From assembly GCF_003334315.1 (NCBI RefSeq), contig NZ_QOWR01000011.1: a DNA stretch of 64,000 nucleotides; one strand, 5' to 3'. A program made the translations under genes and the position numbers. Position 1 is the first letter of the stretch. Each line of letters starts with the position of its first letter. The notes below the pieces were generated by a model. That model was not told the origin of the DNA and did not search any database. It saw only the letters and a program-made list of their open reading frames with translations. Of this stretch, positions 49,627 to 55,995 are shown one piece after another. The DNA comes from Escherichia coli (lineage in GTDB: Bacteria > Pseudomonadota > Gammaproteobacteria > Enterobacterales > Enterobacteriaceae).

Positions 49627-51342
49627 ATGAATTCGTTACAAATCTTGAGTTTTGTCGGTTTTACGCTGCTGGTGGCGGTGATCACCTGGTGGAAGGTCCG
49701 CAAAACAGATACCGGATCGCAACAAGGCTATTTTCTTGCCGGACGTTCACTAAAAGCGCCGGTTATTGCCGCTTCGTTAATGCTAACCAACCTTTCCACG
49801 GAACAACTGGTCGGCCTTTCCGGGCAGGCCTACAAAAGCGGCATGTCGGTGATGGGCTGGGAAGTGACTTCAGCGGTGACGCTGATCTTCCTCGCGCTAA
49901 TCTTTTTACCGCGCTATCTGAAGCGCGGCATTGCCACCATCCCCGATTTTCTGGAGGAACGTTATGATAAAACGACGCGTATTATCATCGACTTCTGCTT
50001 CCTAATTGCCACCGGCGTCTGCTTTCTGCCGATTGTTCTCTACTCCGGCGCGTTGGCGCTCAACAGCCTGTTTCACGTCGGGGAATCGCTACAGATTTCT
50101 CACGGTGCGGCTATCTGGCTACTGGTAATTTTGCTTGGTCTGGCGGGAATTTTGTATGCGGTGATCGGCGGACTGCGCGCAATGGCAGTGGCGGACTCCA
50201 TCAACGGTATTGGGCTGGTTATCGGCGGGTTGATGGTGCCGGTATTTGGCCTGATCGCGATGGGCAAGGGCAGCTTTATGCAGGGCATTGAGCAACTCAC
50301 CACCGTTCACGCCGAGAAATTAAACTCAATCGGTGGCCCGACCGTTCCCTTGCCGATTGGCGCGGCATTTACCGGTTTGATTCTGGTGAACACCTTTTAC
50401 TGGTGTACAAATCAGGGCATCGTGCAACGCACGCTGGCGTCAAAAAGCCTGGCGGAAGGGCAAAAGGGGGCGCTGTTAACGGCGGTGCTGAAAATGCTCG
50501 ACCCGCTGGTACTGGTGCTGCCAGGGTTGATTGCGTTTCATCTGTATCAGGATTTACCGAAAGCCGACATGGCCTACCCGACGCTGGTCAATAACGTTCT
50601 GCCAGTGCCAATGGTGGGTTTCTTCGGCGCGGTGTTATTTGGTGCGGTGATCAGTACCTTCAACGGCTTTCTGAATAGCGCCAGTACGTTATTCAGTATG
50701 GGTATTTACCGTCGCATCATTAACCAGAATGCCGAGCCGCAGCAGCTGGTCACCGTCGGGCGCAAATTTGGTTTCTTTATCGCTATCGTTTCGGTGCTGG
50801 TCGCGCCGTGGATCGCCAACGCGCCGCAGGGGCTGTATAGCTGGATGAAACAGCTCAACGGCATTTACAACGTGCCGCTGGTTACCATCATCATTATGGG
50901 CTTTTTCTTCCCGCGCATCCCGGCGCTGGCGGCAAAAGTAGCGATGGGGATTGGCATAATCAGCTACATCACCATCAACTACCTGGTGAAGTTCGACTTC
51001 CATTTCCTCTATGTGCTGGCCTGTACGTTCTGCATCAACGTGGTCGTGATGCTGGTGATCGGTTTTATCAAACCGCGCGCCACGCCGTTCACCTTCAAAG
51101 ATGCGTTTGCGGTGGACATGAAACCGTGGAAAAACGTCAAGATCGCGTCAATTGGCATCCTGTTCGCGATGATTGGCGTCTATGCCGGGCTGGCTGAATT
51201 CGGCGGCTACGGTACGCGCTGGTTAGCGATGATCAGTTATTTCATTGCCGCCGTAGTGATTGTCTACCTGATTTTTGACAGCTGGCGGCATCGTCACGAC
51301 CCAGCCGTAACCTTTACTCCCGACGGGAAGGATAGCCTATGA
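49627..51342 (+). CDS. yidK: Sodium:solute symporter (SSS family) transporter
   Basis: 571-aa polytopic ORF; co-directional with and overlapping yidJ. Confidence 0.85.
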   Translation: MNSLQILSFVGFTLLVAVITWWKVRKTDTGSQQGYFLAGRSLKAPVIAASLMLTNLSTEQLVGLSGQAYKSGMSVMGWEVTSAVTLIFLALIFLPRYLKRGIATIPDFLEERYDKTTRIIIDFCFLIATGVCFLPIVLYSGALALNSLFHVGESLQISHGAAIWLLVILLGLAGILYAVIGGLRAMAVADSINGIGLVIGGLMVPVFGLIAMGKGSFMQGIEQLTTVHAEKLNSIGGPTVPLPIGAAFTGLILVNTFYWCTNQGIVQRTLASKSLAEGQKGALLTAVLKMLDPLVLVLPGLIAFHLYQDLPKADMAYPTLVNNVLPVPMVGFFGAVLFGAVISTFNGFLNSASTLFSMGIYRRIINQNAEPQQLVTVGRKFGFFIAIVSVLVAPWIANAPQGLYSWMKQLNGIYNVPLVTIIIMGFFFPRIPALAAKVAMGIGIISYITINYLVKFDFHFLYVLACTFCINVVVMLVIGFIKPRATPFTFKDAFAVDMKPWKNVKIASIGILFAMIGVYAGLAEFGGYGTRWLAMISYFIAAVVIVYLIFDSWRHRHDPAVTFTPDGKDSL

Positions 51343-52832
51343 AACGCCCCAATTTTCTGTTCGTCATGACCGATACCCAGGCCACCAATATGGTCGGTTG
51401 CTATAGCGGTAAACCGCTGAATACGCAAAATATTGATAGTCTGGCGGCGGAAGGTATTCGCTTTAATTCCGCCTACACCTGTTCACCGGTTTGTACGCCT
51501 GCACGGGCCGGACTATTTACCGGTATCTACGCTAACCAGTCCGGCCCGTGGACCAACAACGTCGCGCCAGGCAAAAACATCTCCACTATGGGGCGCTACT
51601 TTAAGGATGCCGGCTATCACACCTGTTACATCGGCAAATGGCATCTCGACGGTCATGACTATTTCGGCACTGGCGAGTGTCCGCCGGAGTGGGACGCTGA
51701 TTACTGGTTCGATGGGGCGAACTATCTTAGCGAACTGACGGAAAAAGAGATTAGCCTGTGGCGCAATGGCCTAAACAGCGTCGAAGATTTACAGGCGAAC
51801 CATATCGACGAAACCTTCACCTGGGCGCATCGTATCAGCAATCGGGCGGTGGATTTTCTGCAACAGCCTGCGCGCGCAGACGAGCCTTTCCTGATGGTGG
51901 TTTCGTATGATGAGCCGCATCACCCGTTCACCTGTCCGGTGGAGTATTTAGAGAAATACGCTGATTTTTACTACGAGCTGGGCGAGAAAGCACAGGATGA
52001 CCTGGCTAACAAACCGGAACATCACCGCTTATGGGCGCAGGCGATGCCATCGCCAGTCGGTGATGACGGGCTTTATCACCATCCGCTCTATTTTGCCTGT
52101 AATGACTTTGTTGATGACCAAATCGGACGGGTCATCAATGCCTTAACGCCAGAGCAACGTGAAAATACGTGGGTTATTTATACCTCCGATCACGGCGAAA
52201 TGATGGGCGCACATAAGCTGATCAGTAAAGGGGCGGCGATGTATGACGACATCACCCGCATTCCGCTGATCATCCGTTCGCCGCAAGGGGAGCGGCGACA
52301 GGTCGATACGCCAGTCAGTCATATCGATTTACTGCCGACAATGATGGCGCTGGCAGATATTGAAAAACCAGAGATTCTGCCGGGGGAAAATATCCTTGCC
52401 GTGAAAGAGCCACGCGGCGTGATGGTGGAATTTAACCGCTACGAGATTGAGCATGACAGCTTTGGCGGTTTTATTCCGGTGCGTTGCTGGGTGACGGATG
52501 ACTTTAAACTGGTACTCAACCTCTTCACCAGTGATGAACTTTACGATCGCCGTAATGACCCAAATGAAATGCATAACCTGATCGATGATATCCGTTTTGC
52601 AGACGTTCGCAGCAAAATGCATGACGCCTTATTGGATTACATGGACAAAATTCGCGATCCGTTCCGCAGTTACCAATGGAGTCTGCGTCCGTGGCGTAAA
52701 GATGCACGGCCGCGCTGGATGGGGGCGTTTCGTCCACGTCCACAAGATGGCTATTCGCCAGTTGTACGCGACTATGACACCGGCCTACCGACACAAGGGG
52801 TGAAGGTGGAGGAGAAAAAACAGAAGTTCTGA
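51339..52832 (+). CDS. yidJ: Putative sulfatase (type I sulfatase family)
   Basis: 497-aa ORF with sulfatase signature region CSPVCTPARAGLFTG (C/S-x-P-x-R) near the N-terminus. Confidence 0.88.
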   Translation: MKRPNFLFVMTDTQATNMVGCYSGKPLNTQNIDSLAAEGIRFNSAYTCSPVCTPARAGLFTGIYANQSGPWTNNVAPGKNISTMGRYFKDAGYHTCYIGKWHLDGHDYFGTGECPPEWDADYWFDGANYLSELTEKEISLWRNGLNSVEDLQANHIDETFTWAHRISNRAVDFLQQPARADEPFLMVVSYDEPHHPFTCPVEYLEKYADFYYELGEKAQDDLANKPEHHRLWAQAMPSPVGDDGLYHHPLYFACNDFVDDQIGRVINALTPEQRENTWVIYTSDHGEMMGAHKLISKGAAMYDDITRIPLIIRSPQGERRQVDTPVSHIDLLPTMMALADIEKPEILPGENILAVKEPRGVMVEFNRYEIEHDSFGGFIPVRCWVTDDFKLVLNLFTSDELYDRRNDPNEMHNLIDDIRFADVRSKMHDALLDYMDKIRDPFRSYQWSLRPWRKDARPRWMGAFRPRPQDGYSPVVRDYDTGLPTQGVKVEEKKQKF

Positions 52833-52878
52833 CGATAATGTCCGCTGATGATCACCCGGCGGGCATTATTCAGGCTGC

Positions 52879-53328
52879 TTAAACCAGTGAACCGCCGGTC
52901 AGGAAGGAAAAGATAAGGAATATCAGCAAAATGCTGCACACGATGCCGATACCAAAAAGCAAGGTATGGAAAGCCAGCGTCCCGCCGCCAAAAACCAGCG
53001 CGCCGCGAATGCCCCAGCGATTTTCCTTACGCATACCGCCAATAAATGCGCAAAGTAGCGCAGCAATGGCCAGTGCGATACCGCTTTGATTGAGGATTTT
53101 ATCGACATCTACGTCCTCTTTTTTCTCCACGGTGGTAATTTTTTCGCCTTTTATTCCGGCGAGAAGACCTCTTTTAATTTCAGCCGTTTTGTCCGCCACG
53201 ATGCTTTCAAACGTTGGCGGTGGTGCGGAGAAAGGGCCGAATGAAAAGTGGATAATCCCCATCATTAAAGCGATGGCACCGAACAGCATGCCCAATGAAC
53301 TGATTTTATTTTGAGCTATGATACCCAT
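52879..53328 (-). CDS. yidI: Inner membrane protein YidI
   Basis: 149 aa from internal Met with strong SD (ggaggtcagATG); three predicted TM segments. Confidence 0.75.
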   Translation of the reverse strand: MGIIAQNKISSLGMLFGAIALMMGIIHFSFGPFSAPPPTFESIVADKTAEIKRGLLAGIKGEKITTVEKKEDVDVDKILNQSGIALAIAALLCAFIGGMRKENRWGIRGALVFGGGTLAFHTLLFGIGIVCSILLIFLIFSFLTGGSLV

Positions 53329-53435
53329 CTGACCTCCTTGTAGCGGATGGCAAAAGCATATCAGGAAACGGGCGGACGAAATTCTTAAAAAAACCGCTAA
53401 AGGTAGAGCGTTAGTGAAATTGCAAAGGAGCAACA

Positions 53436-53783
53436 ATGAAAATTTCCCGCCTCGGAGAAGCGCCTGATTACCGCTTCTCGCTGGCTAATGAGCGTACTTT
53501 TCTGGCGTGGATCCGTACTGCACTAGGATTTCTGGCGGCGGGGGTTGGGCTTGATCAACTTGCGCCAGATTTCGCCACGCCCGTCATTCGCGAACTGCTG
53601 GCGTTGTTGTTGTGTCTGTTTTCCGGCGGGTTAGCGATGTATGGCTACTTGCGCTGGTTACGCAATGAAAAAGCGATGCGTCTGAAAGAGGACCTGCCCT
53701 ACACCAACAGCTTATTAATCATTAGCTTAATATTGATGGTCGTGGCGGTGATCGTTATGGGACTGGTGTTGTATGCCGGATAG
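53436..53783 (+). CDS. yidH: Inner membrane protein YidH (DUF202)
   Basis: 115-aa ORF with 3 TM segments. Confidence 0.8.
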   Translation: MKISRLGEAPDYRFSLANERTFLAWIRTALGFLAAGVGLDQLAPDFATPVIRELLALLLCLFSGGLAMYGYLRWLRNEKAMRLKEDLPYTNSLLIISLILMVVAVIVMGLVLYAG

Positions 53784-54135
53784 CCGCAAAGCCAGACGCA
53801 TTGCCGACCCAGGACTGCAGCCGGAGCGCACATCACTGGCGTGGTTTCGTACCATGCTGGGCTACGGCGCGTTGATGGCGTTGGCTATCAAACACAACTG
53901 GCACCAGGCGGGCATGTTATTCTGGATTTCGATTGGCATTCTCGCCATCGTGGCGCTGATCCTCTGGCACTACACCCGTAATCGCAATTTAATGGATGTC
54001 ACGAATAGCGATTTTTCCCAATTTCACGTAGTCCGTGACAAATTTTTGATCTCCCTCGCGGTGTTATCTCTCGCAATACTGTTTGCTGTAACGCATATAC
54101 ATCAACTTATCGTATTTATTGAGAGAGTCGCATGA
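53773..54135 (+). CDS. yidG: Inner membrane protein YidG
   Basis: 120-aa ORF overlapping the yidH end by 11 bp. Confidence 0.8.
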   Translation: MPDSRKARRIADPGLQPERTSLAWFRTMLGYGALMALAIKHNWHQAGMLFWISIGILAIVALILWHYTRNRNLMDVTNSDFSQFHVVRDKFLISLAVLSLAILFAVTHIHQLIVFIERVA

Positions 54136-54629
54136 CAGGAAGTCAGGTCATTGATGCTGAAGAGGACAGGCATAAACTGGTTGTAGAGTACAAGGATGCT
54201 CTGCAACCTGCCGATTTTTATCACAATTTCAAACAGCGGGGCATCCGCTCCGTACAGCTCATTCCCTATCTTGAATTTGATGACCGGGGCGATCTGACGG
54301 CCGCTTCGGTGACAGCAGAGCTGTGGGGGAAATTTTTAATTGCCCTGTTCGAGTGTTGGGTGCGGGCAGATATCAGTCGTATCTCGATTGAGCTTTTTGA
54401 CGCCACCTTACAAAAATGGTGTGGCAGCGAAAACCCGCAACCGCGCTGTGACTGCCAGGCGTGCGACTGGCATCGCCTGTGCCCGCACGCTCGGCAGGAG
54501 ACGCCAGACAGCGTGCTTTGTGCGGGCTATCAGGCGTTTTATTCTTACTCCGCACCGCATATGCGGGTGATGCGTGATCTGATAAAGCAGCATCGTTCTC
54601 CCATGGAGCTGATGACGATGCTGCGGTGA
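54132..54629 (+). CDS. yidF: Cys-rich protein resembling the C-terminal (SPASM-like) part of anaerobic sulfatase-maturating enzymes; no radical-SAM core
   Basis: 165-aa ORF with a CxxCxxxxxCP-type cysteine cluster (CDCQACDWHRLCP) but no CxxxCxxC motif. Confidence 0.7.
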   Translation: MTGSQVIDAEEDRHKLVVEYKDALQPADFYHNFKQRGIRSVQLIPYLEFDDRGDLTAASVTAELWGKFLIALFECWVRADISRISIELFDATLQKWCGSENPQPRCDCQACDWHRLCPHARQETPDSVLCAGYQAFYSYSAPHMRVMRDLIKQHRSPMELMTMLR

Positions 54630-54636
54630 CGTGCGC

Positions 54637-55821
54637 TTAAACGGGCTGCCCCTGATGCGACATCCGCGTCGCCAGCGGCAGCCAGCACAGCACGATCAAC
54701 AATCCCATTAAGGTCATCAACAACCCCAGGCTGCCCTGACCGGTTTGCGGCAACATCGCAGAGAGCGACGCCAGCACGCCGGAACCAATGTTTTGCAGAC
54801 CGCCGACCAGCGCGCCAGCCGTGCCCGCCAGGAAGGGGAACGGCTCCATCGCGCCGCTGGTCGCCAGCGGAAACAGCATCCCGGCACCGAAAAAGAACAG
54901 CGCGGCGGGAACGAGCAGCGTCCAGACATTCATCACGCCAAACCAGTCGGGGATCCACATCAGCAAGCCAGCCAGCAGGCAGCAGATAACCGACTGCCAC
55001 ATTAACGTGGAGAAGCGTTTATTGGGACGTCCGGCAAACCATGCGCCAAAAAACGCTGCCGGAATCGGCAGAATAAACAAAATACTGACCGTCATACTGC
55101 TCAGCCCTAACACCGCGCCCATCAGCACGCCGGAGCAGGCTTCAAAGGCGGCAATCCCGGCCAGACCGCCAATCAGCATCAGCAAATAACAGTTAAAACC
55201 GCTGTTACCGAAAAGCGTTTTATAACTGGTAAGCAGGCGCGTGCGCGGTGCATCGACCGGACGCGTTTCCGGCATCCAGCGGGCCATACTGAAGGTCACA
55301 CCAGCACAAAGAACCAACAAAAAGAGATAACAGGCGCGCCAGTTCCACATCGTATCCAGCAGACCGCCGATTAGCGGTGCGAGCAACGGACTGACGAGAA
55401 TCCCCATGTTTAACAGGCTGTTAGCATGGCGCAACTGTGTCCGTTCATATAAATCTCGCGGTAAAGTACGCGCCATTACGCCGCCAACGCCGGTGCCCAT
55501 CCCCTGCATCGCGCTGGCGGCAATCAACACCGTCAAACTGGAGGTCGTGACCGCGACCAGCGTTGCCAGCATAAAAATGGACATTCCGACGAGGATCACC
55601 GGTCGGCGGCCCACGCGGTCGGAAATCGGGCCATAAAACAGCTGTGAGACACCGTAAGTCAGCAGATAAGCGCCCATTACGCTCTGCACCGCCCCTTCAC
55701 GGACGTTGAGATCGCGCGCCATATCGGCAATAGCTGGAATATAAATGGTTTGCGCCATCTGACCGACGGCCACGAGTAATACCAACATCAATAACAAATT
55801 GACGTTTCTTTGCCTTTTCAT
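54637..55821 (-). CDS. emrD: MFS multidrug efflux pump EmrD
   Basis: 394 aa from MKRQRNVNLLLMLVLLVAVGQ...; 12-TM MFS. Confidence 0.9.
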   Translation of the reverse strand: MKRQRNVNLLLMLVLLVAVGQMAQTIYIPAIADMARDLNVREGAVQSVMGAYLLTYGVSQLFYGPISDRVGRRPVILVGMSIFMLATLVAVTTSSLTVLIAASAMQGMGTGVGGVMARTLPRDLYERTQLRHANSLLNMGILVSPLLAPLIGGLLDTMWNWRACYLFLLVLCAGVTFSMARWMPETRPVDAPRTRLLTSYKTLFGNSGFNCYLLMLIGGLAGIAAFEACSGVLMGAVLGLSSMTVSILFILPIPAAFFGAWFAGRPNKRFSTLMWQSVICCLLAGLLMWIPDWFGVMNVWTLLVPAALFFFGAGMLFPLATSGAMEPFPFLAGTAGALVGGLQNIGSGVLASLSAMLPQTGQGSLGLLMTLMGLLIVLCWLPLATRMSHQGQPV

Positions 55822-55995
55822 TATCACGGATGCTTTTATAAAAATAATTAGAATAAGTCACTACGCATTCCCATAAATGCGGGAGAGGAATCTATCACAT
55901 TGATGAATGTTAGCCAGATATACGCCAGGAATGGGGAATTGTTTAGCGGCAGAATATGTAAACAAAAGCGGCAATAAATGTTGCCGGGAGAGATG

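Follow-up and report, generated by a model that had tools for sequence, protein, structure and literature searches.

The yidF gene of Escherichia coli encodes a protein of 165 residues and lies, together with the small membrane-protein genes yidH and yidG, downstream of the sulfatase gene yidJ. It was analysed here in a window of 64,000 nucleotides, i.e., the whole stretch of DNA taken from contig NZ_QOWR01000011.1 of assembly GCF_003334315.1, which is 100% identical to E. coli K-12 MG1655. As judged from alignment, gene order, and predicted fold, YidF is a doubly deleted derivative of the anaerobic sulfatase-maturating enzyme (anSME) and not a radical SAM enzyme. The anSME is a radical SAM/SPASM protein, represented by the NCBIfam model TIGR03942 and by the structure of the Clostridium perfringens enzyme anSMEcpe (PDB 4K36-4K39). 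The explanation that we hold to be rather probable is that YidF is the remnant of a full-length anSME, which would have lost its catalytic core by in-frame deletions and would still be selected, being neither a working enzyme nor junk.

The relationship between YidF and anSME is apparent in both sequence and fold. The NCBIfam model TIGR03942 ('anaerobic sulfatase maturase') matches YidF with E=5e-21, residues 17-101 corresponding to profile positions 160-245 of 363, at a score of 75.1 bits that lies below the curated cutoff of 349.45. A Pfam scan of YidF returned zero matches, neither to Radical_SAM nor to SPASM, so that the family assignment rests on NCBIfam, the PDB, and synteny. In a phmmer comparison with the PDB, anSMEcpe (4K36/4K37) provides the sole relatives of YidF: residues 27-95 align with anSMEcpe 175-246 and residues 105-152 with anSMEcpe 314-370, and the homology is confined to the C-terminal ~55% of the enzyme. 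The AlphaFold model of YidF, built from 59 homologs, has a predicted local distance difference test score (pLDDT) of 81, with high confidence at residues 10-100 and 130-165 and low confidence in the cysteine region. When this predicted structure is compared with the PDB by Foldseek, only 4K36-4K39 are significant (E=8e-6 to ~1e-5, TMq 0.6). A representative-library search added only ordinary anSME/SPASM proteins of 350-450 residues and fragments. The resemblance to anSME is far above chance, and YidF shares common descent with this family in sequence and fold. These results uphold the proposal of a preliminary description of the window, made from the sequence alone, that YidF comes from a sulfatase-maturating enzyme whose radical SAM core has been lost; the support from profile searches comes from NCBIfam, at a sub-cutoff level, and not from the Pfam radical SAM or SPASM models. 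The same description had pointed to a cysteine cluster without the CxxxCxxC motif. Indeed, residues 106-118 read CDCQACDWHRLCP, and the motif, sought in all 165 residues, was not found.

YidF and anSME share the barrel's final two beta/alpha units, the CX2CX5C...C motif that provides the ligands of auxiliary cluster II (Aux II), and the C-terminal helix. Compared with anSME, it lacks the CxxxCxxC S-adenosylmethionine (AdoMet) radical cluster and ~140 barrel residues, as well as the SPASM beta-hairpin, three ligands of the auxiliary cluster I (Aux I), and the fourth Aux I ligand. Such a protein is unable to generate the 5′-deoxyadenosyl radical and so cannot work like anSME; formylglycine formation by YidF is expected to be impossible via the radical SAM route. 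AslB and YdeM are the anSME paralogs of E. coli, and mutants of aslB and ydeM were reportedly described by Benjdia et al. in 2007, as cited by a later paper.

The gene comprises the following elements within the window, the junction and stub calls coming from an alignment of 62 positional orthologs.

54132..54629, + strand: yidF, 165 residues, an internally deleted anSME derivative (homology, synteny, alignment, fold match)
54132..54158, + strand: start codon kept from the ancestor, with an N-terminal stub of nine residues (1-9, MTGSQVIDA), homologous to MTGCQVMAK of the full-length forms (alignment)
54180..54416, + strand: radical SAM partial-barrel remnant, last two beta/alpha units, residues 17-95, equivalent to anSMEcpe 175-246 (pLDDT 85-96)
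54423..54443, + strand: second deletion junction, residues ~98-104, at which anSMEcpe 247-313 is missing (alignment)
54447..54521, + strand: cysteine cluster, C106, C108, C111, C117 ... C130 (phmmer, cysteine table)
54525..54626, + strand: C-terminal helix and tail, GYQAFYSYSAPHMRVMRDLIKQHRSPMELMTMLR, with columns P142-L160 invariant and helices at 130-152 and 159-164 (pLDDT 80-92)

The first in-frame deletion follows the stub and has removed ~140 residues (~10-150), and with them the CxxxCxxC motif and the AdoMet-binding strands. The second, of ~65 residues, has removed the Aux I ligands and the SPASM beta-hairpin. YidF starts with MTGS.. at the place of MTGCQVMAKPASSRCNLxCRYC in full-length forms, and the ATGA overlap with the yidG stop codon is conserved in both. 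All short forms that retain the overlap with yidG open with the MTG(C/S)xV stub and then jump to the equivalent of residue ~150. The retention of the ancestral start and stub indicates that an in-frame deletion inside the gene took out the N-terminal half. A search for relics of the missing N-terminal 160 residues or of the Aux I segment, covering the DNA from yidI to yidF as well as the complete window, gave nothing better than chance matches (E>0.1).

The cysteines that are left correspond to a single auxiliary cluster: a SPASM domain binds two auxiliary [4Fe-4S] clusters through seven or eight cysteines, of which YidF retains the four Aux II equivalents. In the publication on the 4K36-4K39 structures, the Aux II ligands of anSMEcpe are reported to be C317, C320, C326, and C348, and the Aux I ligands C255, C261, C276, and C330. 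With these assignments, the phmmer alignment equates C108, C111, C117, and C130 of YidF with C317, C320, C326, and C348, respectively; the stretch containing the equivalents of C255, C261, and C276 is missing, and that of C330 is lost in a 4-residue gap. Across 59 sequences, C108, C111, and C130 do not vary at all, and the conservation of C117 reaches at least 90%. The columns of the radical SAM motif are gapped in all Escherichia and read CCC in all intact full-length orthologs, and the motif is gone from every short form except the 192-residue copy of Citrobacter amalonaticus ku-bf3 (L026). The first three Aux I ligands are absent from all short forms. The Aux II ligands are retained in 26 of the 33 short forms, Escherichia being counted by the CX2CX5C spacing, and the other 7 have a tyrosine at the third position and at least 4 cysteines in the region. 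In short and full-length proteins alike, conservation is highest in the C-terminal helix and tail.

The ancestry of yidF is most directly documented by intact enzymes encoded at the same position. The genes surrounding yidF in the window are the following.

49627-51342: yidK, transporter gene, member of the ancestral operon
51339..52832, + strand: yidJ, 497 residues, cytoplasmic Cys-type (C52-T-P-A-R56) type I sulfatase (open reading frame (ORF), NCBIfam, PF00884 in orthologs)
52879..53328, - strand: yidI, small membrane-protein gene located between yidJ and yidH
53436..53783, + strand: yidH, 115 residues, DUF202 (PF02656) inner-membrane protein, first gene of the trio formed by yidH, yidG, and the yidF-position gene
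53773..54135, + strand: yidG, 120 residues, second DUF202 membrane protein
54637-55827, - strand: emrD, convergent with yidF

A scan of one genome per bacterial species gave 77 loci, which were classified by script. In ~30 species of Enterobacteriaceae, an intact anSME of 369-381 residues with all cluster motifs directly follows yidH-yidG, with the same overlap of 4 nucleotides (nt) as yidF. The holders of such full-length genes include Citrobacter werkmanii, C. braakii, C. sedlakii, C. amalonaticus, Kluyvera, Trabulsiella, Atlantibacter, and Pluralibacter, but also Kosakonia, Leclercia sp. 29361, and several Enterobacter-like genomes, and their N-terminus reads MTGCxVMAKPASSRCNLxCRYCFY. The C. 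werkmanii positional ortholog (L028:5530-6642) scores 483.9 bits on TIGR03942, above the cutoff that YidF fails, and is therefore a true anSME. The full-length positional orthologs share with YidF the slot after yidH-yidG, the ATGA overlap, the MTGC.. start, and the C-terminal APHMRVMRDLIKQHRSPMELM tail, with 44-50% identity across the shared residues; they differ in having their three cluster motifs intact and passing the anSME cutoff, whereas YidF is doubly deleted. In related genera, anSME genes occupy the same genomic slot as yidF, downstream of a Cys-type sulfatase gene. One metagenome-assembled genome carries yidL-yidK-yidJ-yidH-yidG followed by a full-length maturase starting MTGCHVMAKPASSRCNLRCRYCFY. 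This gene is whole except for two N bases (L004:7956-7957), an assembly artefact that divides it into two called ORFs, of 162 and 204 residues, and that could pass for a natural split.

The short form is itself widely distributed. A protein search identified YidF-like proteins of 164-178 residues, with 42-85% identity, in E. albertii, E. marmotae, Citrobacter, Superficieibacter, Klebsiella, Leclercia, and Silvania. Among the classified loci, forms of 160-186 residues occur in all Escherichia, Salmonella arizonae/diarizonae, the C. freundii group, and Superficieibacter, as well as in Klebsiella/Raoultella, K. sichuanensis, and Leclercia/Silvania. The short ORF is intact and of constant length in six Escherichia species-level genomes, ~10 Citrobacter, Salmonella arizonae/diarizonae, and others. 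Intermediate lengths of 249 (L047), 213 (L005), and 192 residues (L026) are also found. Within E. coli, yidF is carried by 5421 of 5426 complete genomes, and the match to its ORF, which is intact in the window, has a length of exactly 498 nt in 39 of 40 sampled genomes. Between E. coli and E. whittamii, the amino acid identity is 82% for YidF and 95-99% for its neighbours.

The constraint acting on yidF was estimated as the ratio of nonsynonymous to synonymous substitution rates (dN/dS), pooled by the Nei-Gojobori method over pairs with dS<1 from the same clade, both members of which carry the deletion, and restricted to the columns present in E. coli YidF. Across the whole shared region, dN/dS is 0.22 in short forms (95% bootstrap confidence interval (CI) 0.19-0.25) and 0.09 in full-length forms (0.07-0.11), the pairs being non-independent and the estimates not being a codon-model test. 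The respective values for short and full-length forms are 0.19 and 0.07 in the barrel remnant, 0.33 and 0.14 in the cysteine region, and 0.10 and 0.08 in the C-terminal tail; every sub-region of the short forms is below 0.6. For the same pairs, the neighbouring genes give 0.026-0.054 (yidJ), 0.01-0.05 (yidH), 0.04-0.13 (yidG), and 0.02-0.06 (emrD). Short YidF is under purifying selection that is relaxed overall, with a tail as constrained as that of the full-length enzymes. Because the species compared already share the deletion, this constraint acted after the deletion. Neither of the pseudogene hallmarks considered is seen in yidF: the reading frame is not disrupted in the window, and dN/dS is 0.22 and not ~1.

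The shortening took place on two occasions at the least, and probably on five or more. Deletion junctions vary among lineages, as exemplified in the alignment by the copies of intermediate length (L005, L026, and L047). A neighbour-joining tree built from the shared residues places the short forms of Leclercia/Silvania together with the full-length Leclercia gene, with a bootstrap support of 87%, and these short forms have a 5-residue gap in common with it. In a separate tree of YidH+YidG, short and full-length forms are interleaved within genus clades: K. sichuanensis falls inside Kluyvera, and the full-length Leclercia nests at 100% with two short ones, in a group that sits in a 97% clade with short Silvania genes and the 213-residue intermediate. 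Support for the deep nodes is weak. The first junction is common to Escherichia, the C. freundii group, and Salmonella arizonae, which may descend from one shared event. A single ancient deletion for all short forms was considered and is disfavoured by the Leclercia/Silvania and Kluyvera placements and by the differing junctions. The independent deletions are all in frame and all retain the same C-terminal module.

The maturase of the yidF position had the sulfatase YidJ as its ancestral client. The type I sulfatase signature noticed in the preliminary description is confirmed: YidJ carries the Cys-type sequence C52-T-P-A-R56, has no signal peptide, and matches the NCBIfam arylsulfatase NF010322 and choline-sulfatase TIGR03417 models with E=1e-59 to 1e-64, below their equivalog cutoffs, and its orthologs carry PF00884. 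The sulfatase association is present in the window, where yidJ lies 1.3 kb upstream of yidF. The dN/dS of yidJ in Escherichia equals that found in lineages with the full maturase, and its value of 0.026-0.054 indicates that the sulfatase gene and system are not decaying.

The link between yidF and yidJ is loose. Citrobacter and Leclercia-like genomes have the order yidE-yidH-yidG-yidF, with identical overlaps, without the sulfatase, and short YidF also survives where yidJ is absent, namely in the C. freundii group, in Klebsiella and Leclercia, and in E. coli E105. In the latter (L088, 3176-4957), the yidL-yidK-yidJ-yidI block is missing and yidHGF is intact; upstream of yidHGF are located an IS200/IS605 tnpA pseudogene, a TnpB/InsQ gene, and glv-type phosphotransferase system/6-phospho-alpha-glucosidase genes. 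Among the 5421 E. coli genomes, 305 have less than 80% coverage of the yidJ-to-yidF query. In E. coli N63, a cerebrospinal fluid isolate (L001:3001-4493), RefSeq records yidJ as a frameshifted pseudogene, and yidH, yidG, and yidF are intact. Conversely, a full-length anSME gene follows yidH-yidG with no yidK-yidJ within ~5 kb upstream in Kosakonia (L040, L060, L065, L067, L070) and at L057, L081, and L075, which indicates that the yidH-yidG-anSME trio can persist without an adjacent sulfatase. At L048, only an 18-residue remnant of the 3′ end of yidJ is left.

Altogether, these comparisons indicate that the ancestral operon was yidK-yidJ-yidH-yidG-anSME. Two in-frame deletions occurred on the way to Escherichia and, as separate events, in several further lineages of enterobacteria, and the original start codon kept its coupling to the yidG stop codon. 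What the product still has is a pair of beta/alpha units, all four Aux II cysteines, and the C-terminal helix; it is incapable of AdoMet radical chemistry and persists even in genomes that lost yidJ. YidF may now be a small, non-catalytic protein that binds a metal or a [4Fe-4S] cluster through four cysteines (Cys4), possibly with YidH and YidG. The 11-nt overlap of yidH with yidG and the 4-nt overlap (ATGA) of yidG with yidF are the usual signature of translational coupling, by which YidF would be made in a fixed ratio with YidH and YidG. Maturation of YidJ would have been taken over by another E. coli system, a redundancy that would explain how the catalytic half became dispensable.

Several observations weigh against a remnant that is still selected. 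Short YidF has no known biochemical or genetic function, and an AlphaFold prediction of a fused YidH-linker-YidG-linker-YidF chain (28 paired rows; pLDDT 59, predicted template modelling score (pTM) 0.38) lends no support to a complex. The cysteine region is modelled at low confidence, and the third Aux II cysteine is a tyrosine in 7 Citrobacter sequences. Constraint is ~2.4-fold relaxed in short relative to full-length forms, and the dN/dS pairs carry the non-independence mentioned above. In E. kobei and in one Salmonella enterica strain, yidH-yidG is kept and yidF is gone entirely, indicating that YidF is dispensable and that YidH and YidG do not need it. Short copies are frameshifted in the E. 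albertii type strain NBRC 107761 (L022:4259-4739) and in L. adecarboxylata NCTC13032 (L064), as are full-length copies in Kluyvera genomosp. 3, P. gergoviae, and T. odontotermitis (L037, L053, L083). The gene at the yidF slot is being lost in several lineages, as these copies indicate, some of the frameshifts being in draft assemblies, where they could be sequencing errors.

Such losses are what would be expected if YidF were a functionless relic, i.e., a pseudogene with a surviving frame that slowly decays after another system took over YidJ maturation. This reading, which we regard as unlikely, would account for the loss of all catalytic determinants, the blank Pfam result, the higher dN/dS relative to full-length orthologs, and the faster divergence of YidF than of its neighbours between E. 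coli and E. whittamii. It is at odds with the dN/dS of 0.22 and its upper CI of 0.25, with the low values of all sub-regions, down to 0.10 in the tail, and with the fact that this constraint was measured among species already sharing the deletion. It also has to contend with an ORF kept intact and at constant length across Escherichia, Citrobacter, and Salmonella arizonae/diarizonae, with its near-universal presence in E. coli, and with independent deletions that all stay in frame and keep the same module. In the preliminary description, YidF was read as orphaned and decayed; the form of ~165-178 residues turns out to be conserved across orthologous loci in many genera, which speaks against simple decay. 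That description went further and proposed that the maturase gene had been split or rearranged, with yidH and yidG standing in place of its N-terminal half and a possibly non-functional sulfatase system left behind. The alignment of YidF to only the C-terminal part of anSME and the two small genes immediately upstream would fit such a scenario. It is scarcely credible once synteny is considered: genomes with an intact maturase hold yidH and yidG at the identical place with the same overlaps, so that these are old operon members and not replacements for the missing half, which excludes a split or rearrangement. Besides, YidH and YidG are genuine, strongly constrained DUF202 proteins, their DNA is dissimilar to the missing half, YidF opens with the ancestral MTG(C/S)xV.. 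stub, and the strong constraint on yidJ contradicts a non-functional sulfatase system.

A role in sulfatase maturation could also have outlived the radical chemistry. YidF, perhaps alongside YidH and YidG, would then serve, for example, as a scaffold, a chaperone, or an electron-transfer subunit of the system by which E. coli forms formylglycine from Cys in Cys-type sulfatases. Its maturase descent and its location in the E. coli sulfatase operon would be in line with this, as would the retained Aux II-like Cys4 site, Aux II being the cluster nearest the surface in anSME, and the strong selection on yidJ although its cognate radical SAM maturase is gone. One paper states, in a passage citing aslB/ydeM mutant work, that E. 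coli modifies only Cys-type sulfatases and calls the machinery 'elusive' (PMC6189696). We give this possibility little credence: short YidF is selected in many genomes that lack yidJ, the deletions have taken out the Aux I region and the greater part of the substrate-binding barrel, and there is no experimental link. A further proposal, equally improbable in our estimation, is that short YidF has been repurposed as an Aux II-only Fe-S mini-protein, selected repeatedly in parallel and working with YidH/YidG in a process unrelated to AdoMet radical chemistry. Versions of this proposal would make it part of the E. coli Cys-type sulfatase maturation system or may connect it to D-amino acid tolerance or export. 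The explanation that we favour, a remnant still under selection, places YidF close to pseudoenzymes and domain remnants, which likewise have a catalytic ancestor, have lost the catalytic residues, and are under relaxed but continuing purifying selection. It differs from them in that its reduction recurred in parallel lineages, which is unusual, and in that no new role has been demonstrated for it.

The yidHGF genes may be linked to D-amino acids. According to the gene table of one paper, overexpression of YidF raises D-serine resistance. In a screen for D-alanine exporters described in another study (PMC10299036), YidH was recovered, together with YidG in the first round, and the transport assay of YidH was negative. 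Across many genera, the yidHGF trio has dsdAXC as its neighbour. The genes dsdA, dsdX, and dsdC of the D-serine deaminase locus, identified by NCBIfam equivalog matches, are found convergent to yidF/yidG in Citrobacter, Leclercia, E. kobei, and C. koseri (L002:8544-12389; also L006, L007, L085, and L086).

The other members of the locus differ in their conservation. The yidH gene is located upstream of the yidF-position gene in every enterobacterial locus examined, PF02656 is assigned to both yidH and yidG in orthologous loci, and cluster representatives 98-100% identical to YidH carry a precomputed PF02656 assignment. Among the matches listed in a homolog search with YidH (120), all are close enterobacterial orthologs. 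In the low-confidence fused model, YidH and YidG are each predicted to form three long helices. The presence of yidI is polymorphic: the gene is missing from E. coli genomes of a class with 82% query coverage and from E. coli N63, in which yidH begins ~60 nt after yidJ, and likewise from most other genera. Its absence in numerous relatives and in part of the E. coli genomes places yidI outside the ancestral operon. A promoter scan of positions 52700-54900 found no promoter. At the other end of the locus, the stop codons of the convergent genes yidF and emrD are 7 nt apart, and each transcript must therefore terminate within the opposite gene. Terminator-like hairpins are located within yidF (54373-54391, + strand) and within emrD (54739-54726, - strand). 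A 'yidF terminator' serves as a model in a 2026 bioRxiv preprint.

In RefSeq, the Prokaryotic Genome Annotation Pipeline (PGAP) names YidF 'radical SAM protein' in thousands of records, although the protein carries no radical SAM cluster motif, has no Pfam match, and stays below the NCBIfam cutoff. The name is misleading, an annotation error propagated by homology. A RefSeq/EcoGene name formerly given to YidF was 'putative Cys-type oxidative YidJ-maturating enzyme'. The likeness of YidF to sulfatase maturases and its nearness to yidJ were already contained in annotations. In a literature search, no paper was found that connects yidF to a sulfatase, and yidF, yidH, and yidJ are mentioned only incidentally. 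As far as the literature searched shows, what is new is that YidF is positionally orthologous to intact enzymes, that its loss was internal and in frame, that Aux II alone is retained, that the shortening recurred in different lineages, and that the remnant is under purifying selection.

The widespread RefSeq/PGAP annotation of YidF is corrected here, the protein having neither a radical SAM cluster nor an AdoMet site. The strong selection on yidJ without its cognate maturase sharpens the old question of the formylglycine source in E. coli, and two uncharacterised DUF202 membrane proteins are tied to an ancestral sulfatase/maturase operon. Finally, the yidF position offers a natural deletion series, from 370 to 249, 213, 192, and ~165 residues and then to loss, in which the Aux II cysteines and the C-terminal helix are repeatedly kept, and which is useful for understanding both the modular build of radical SAM/SPASM proteins and the origin of pseudoenzymes.

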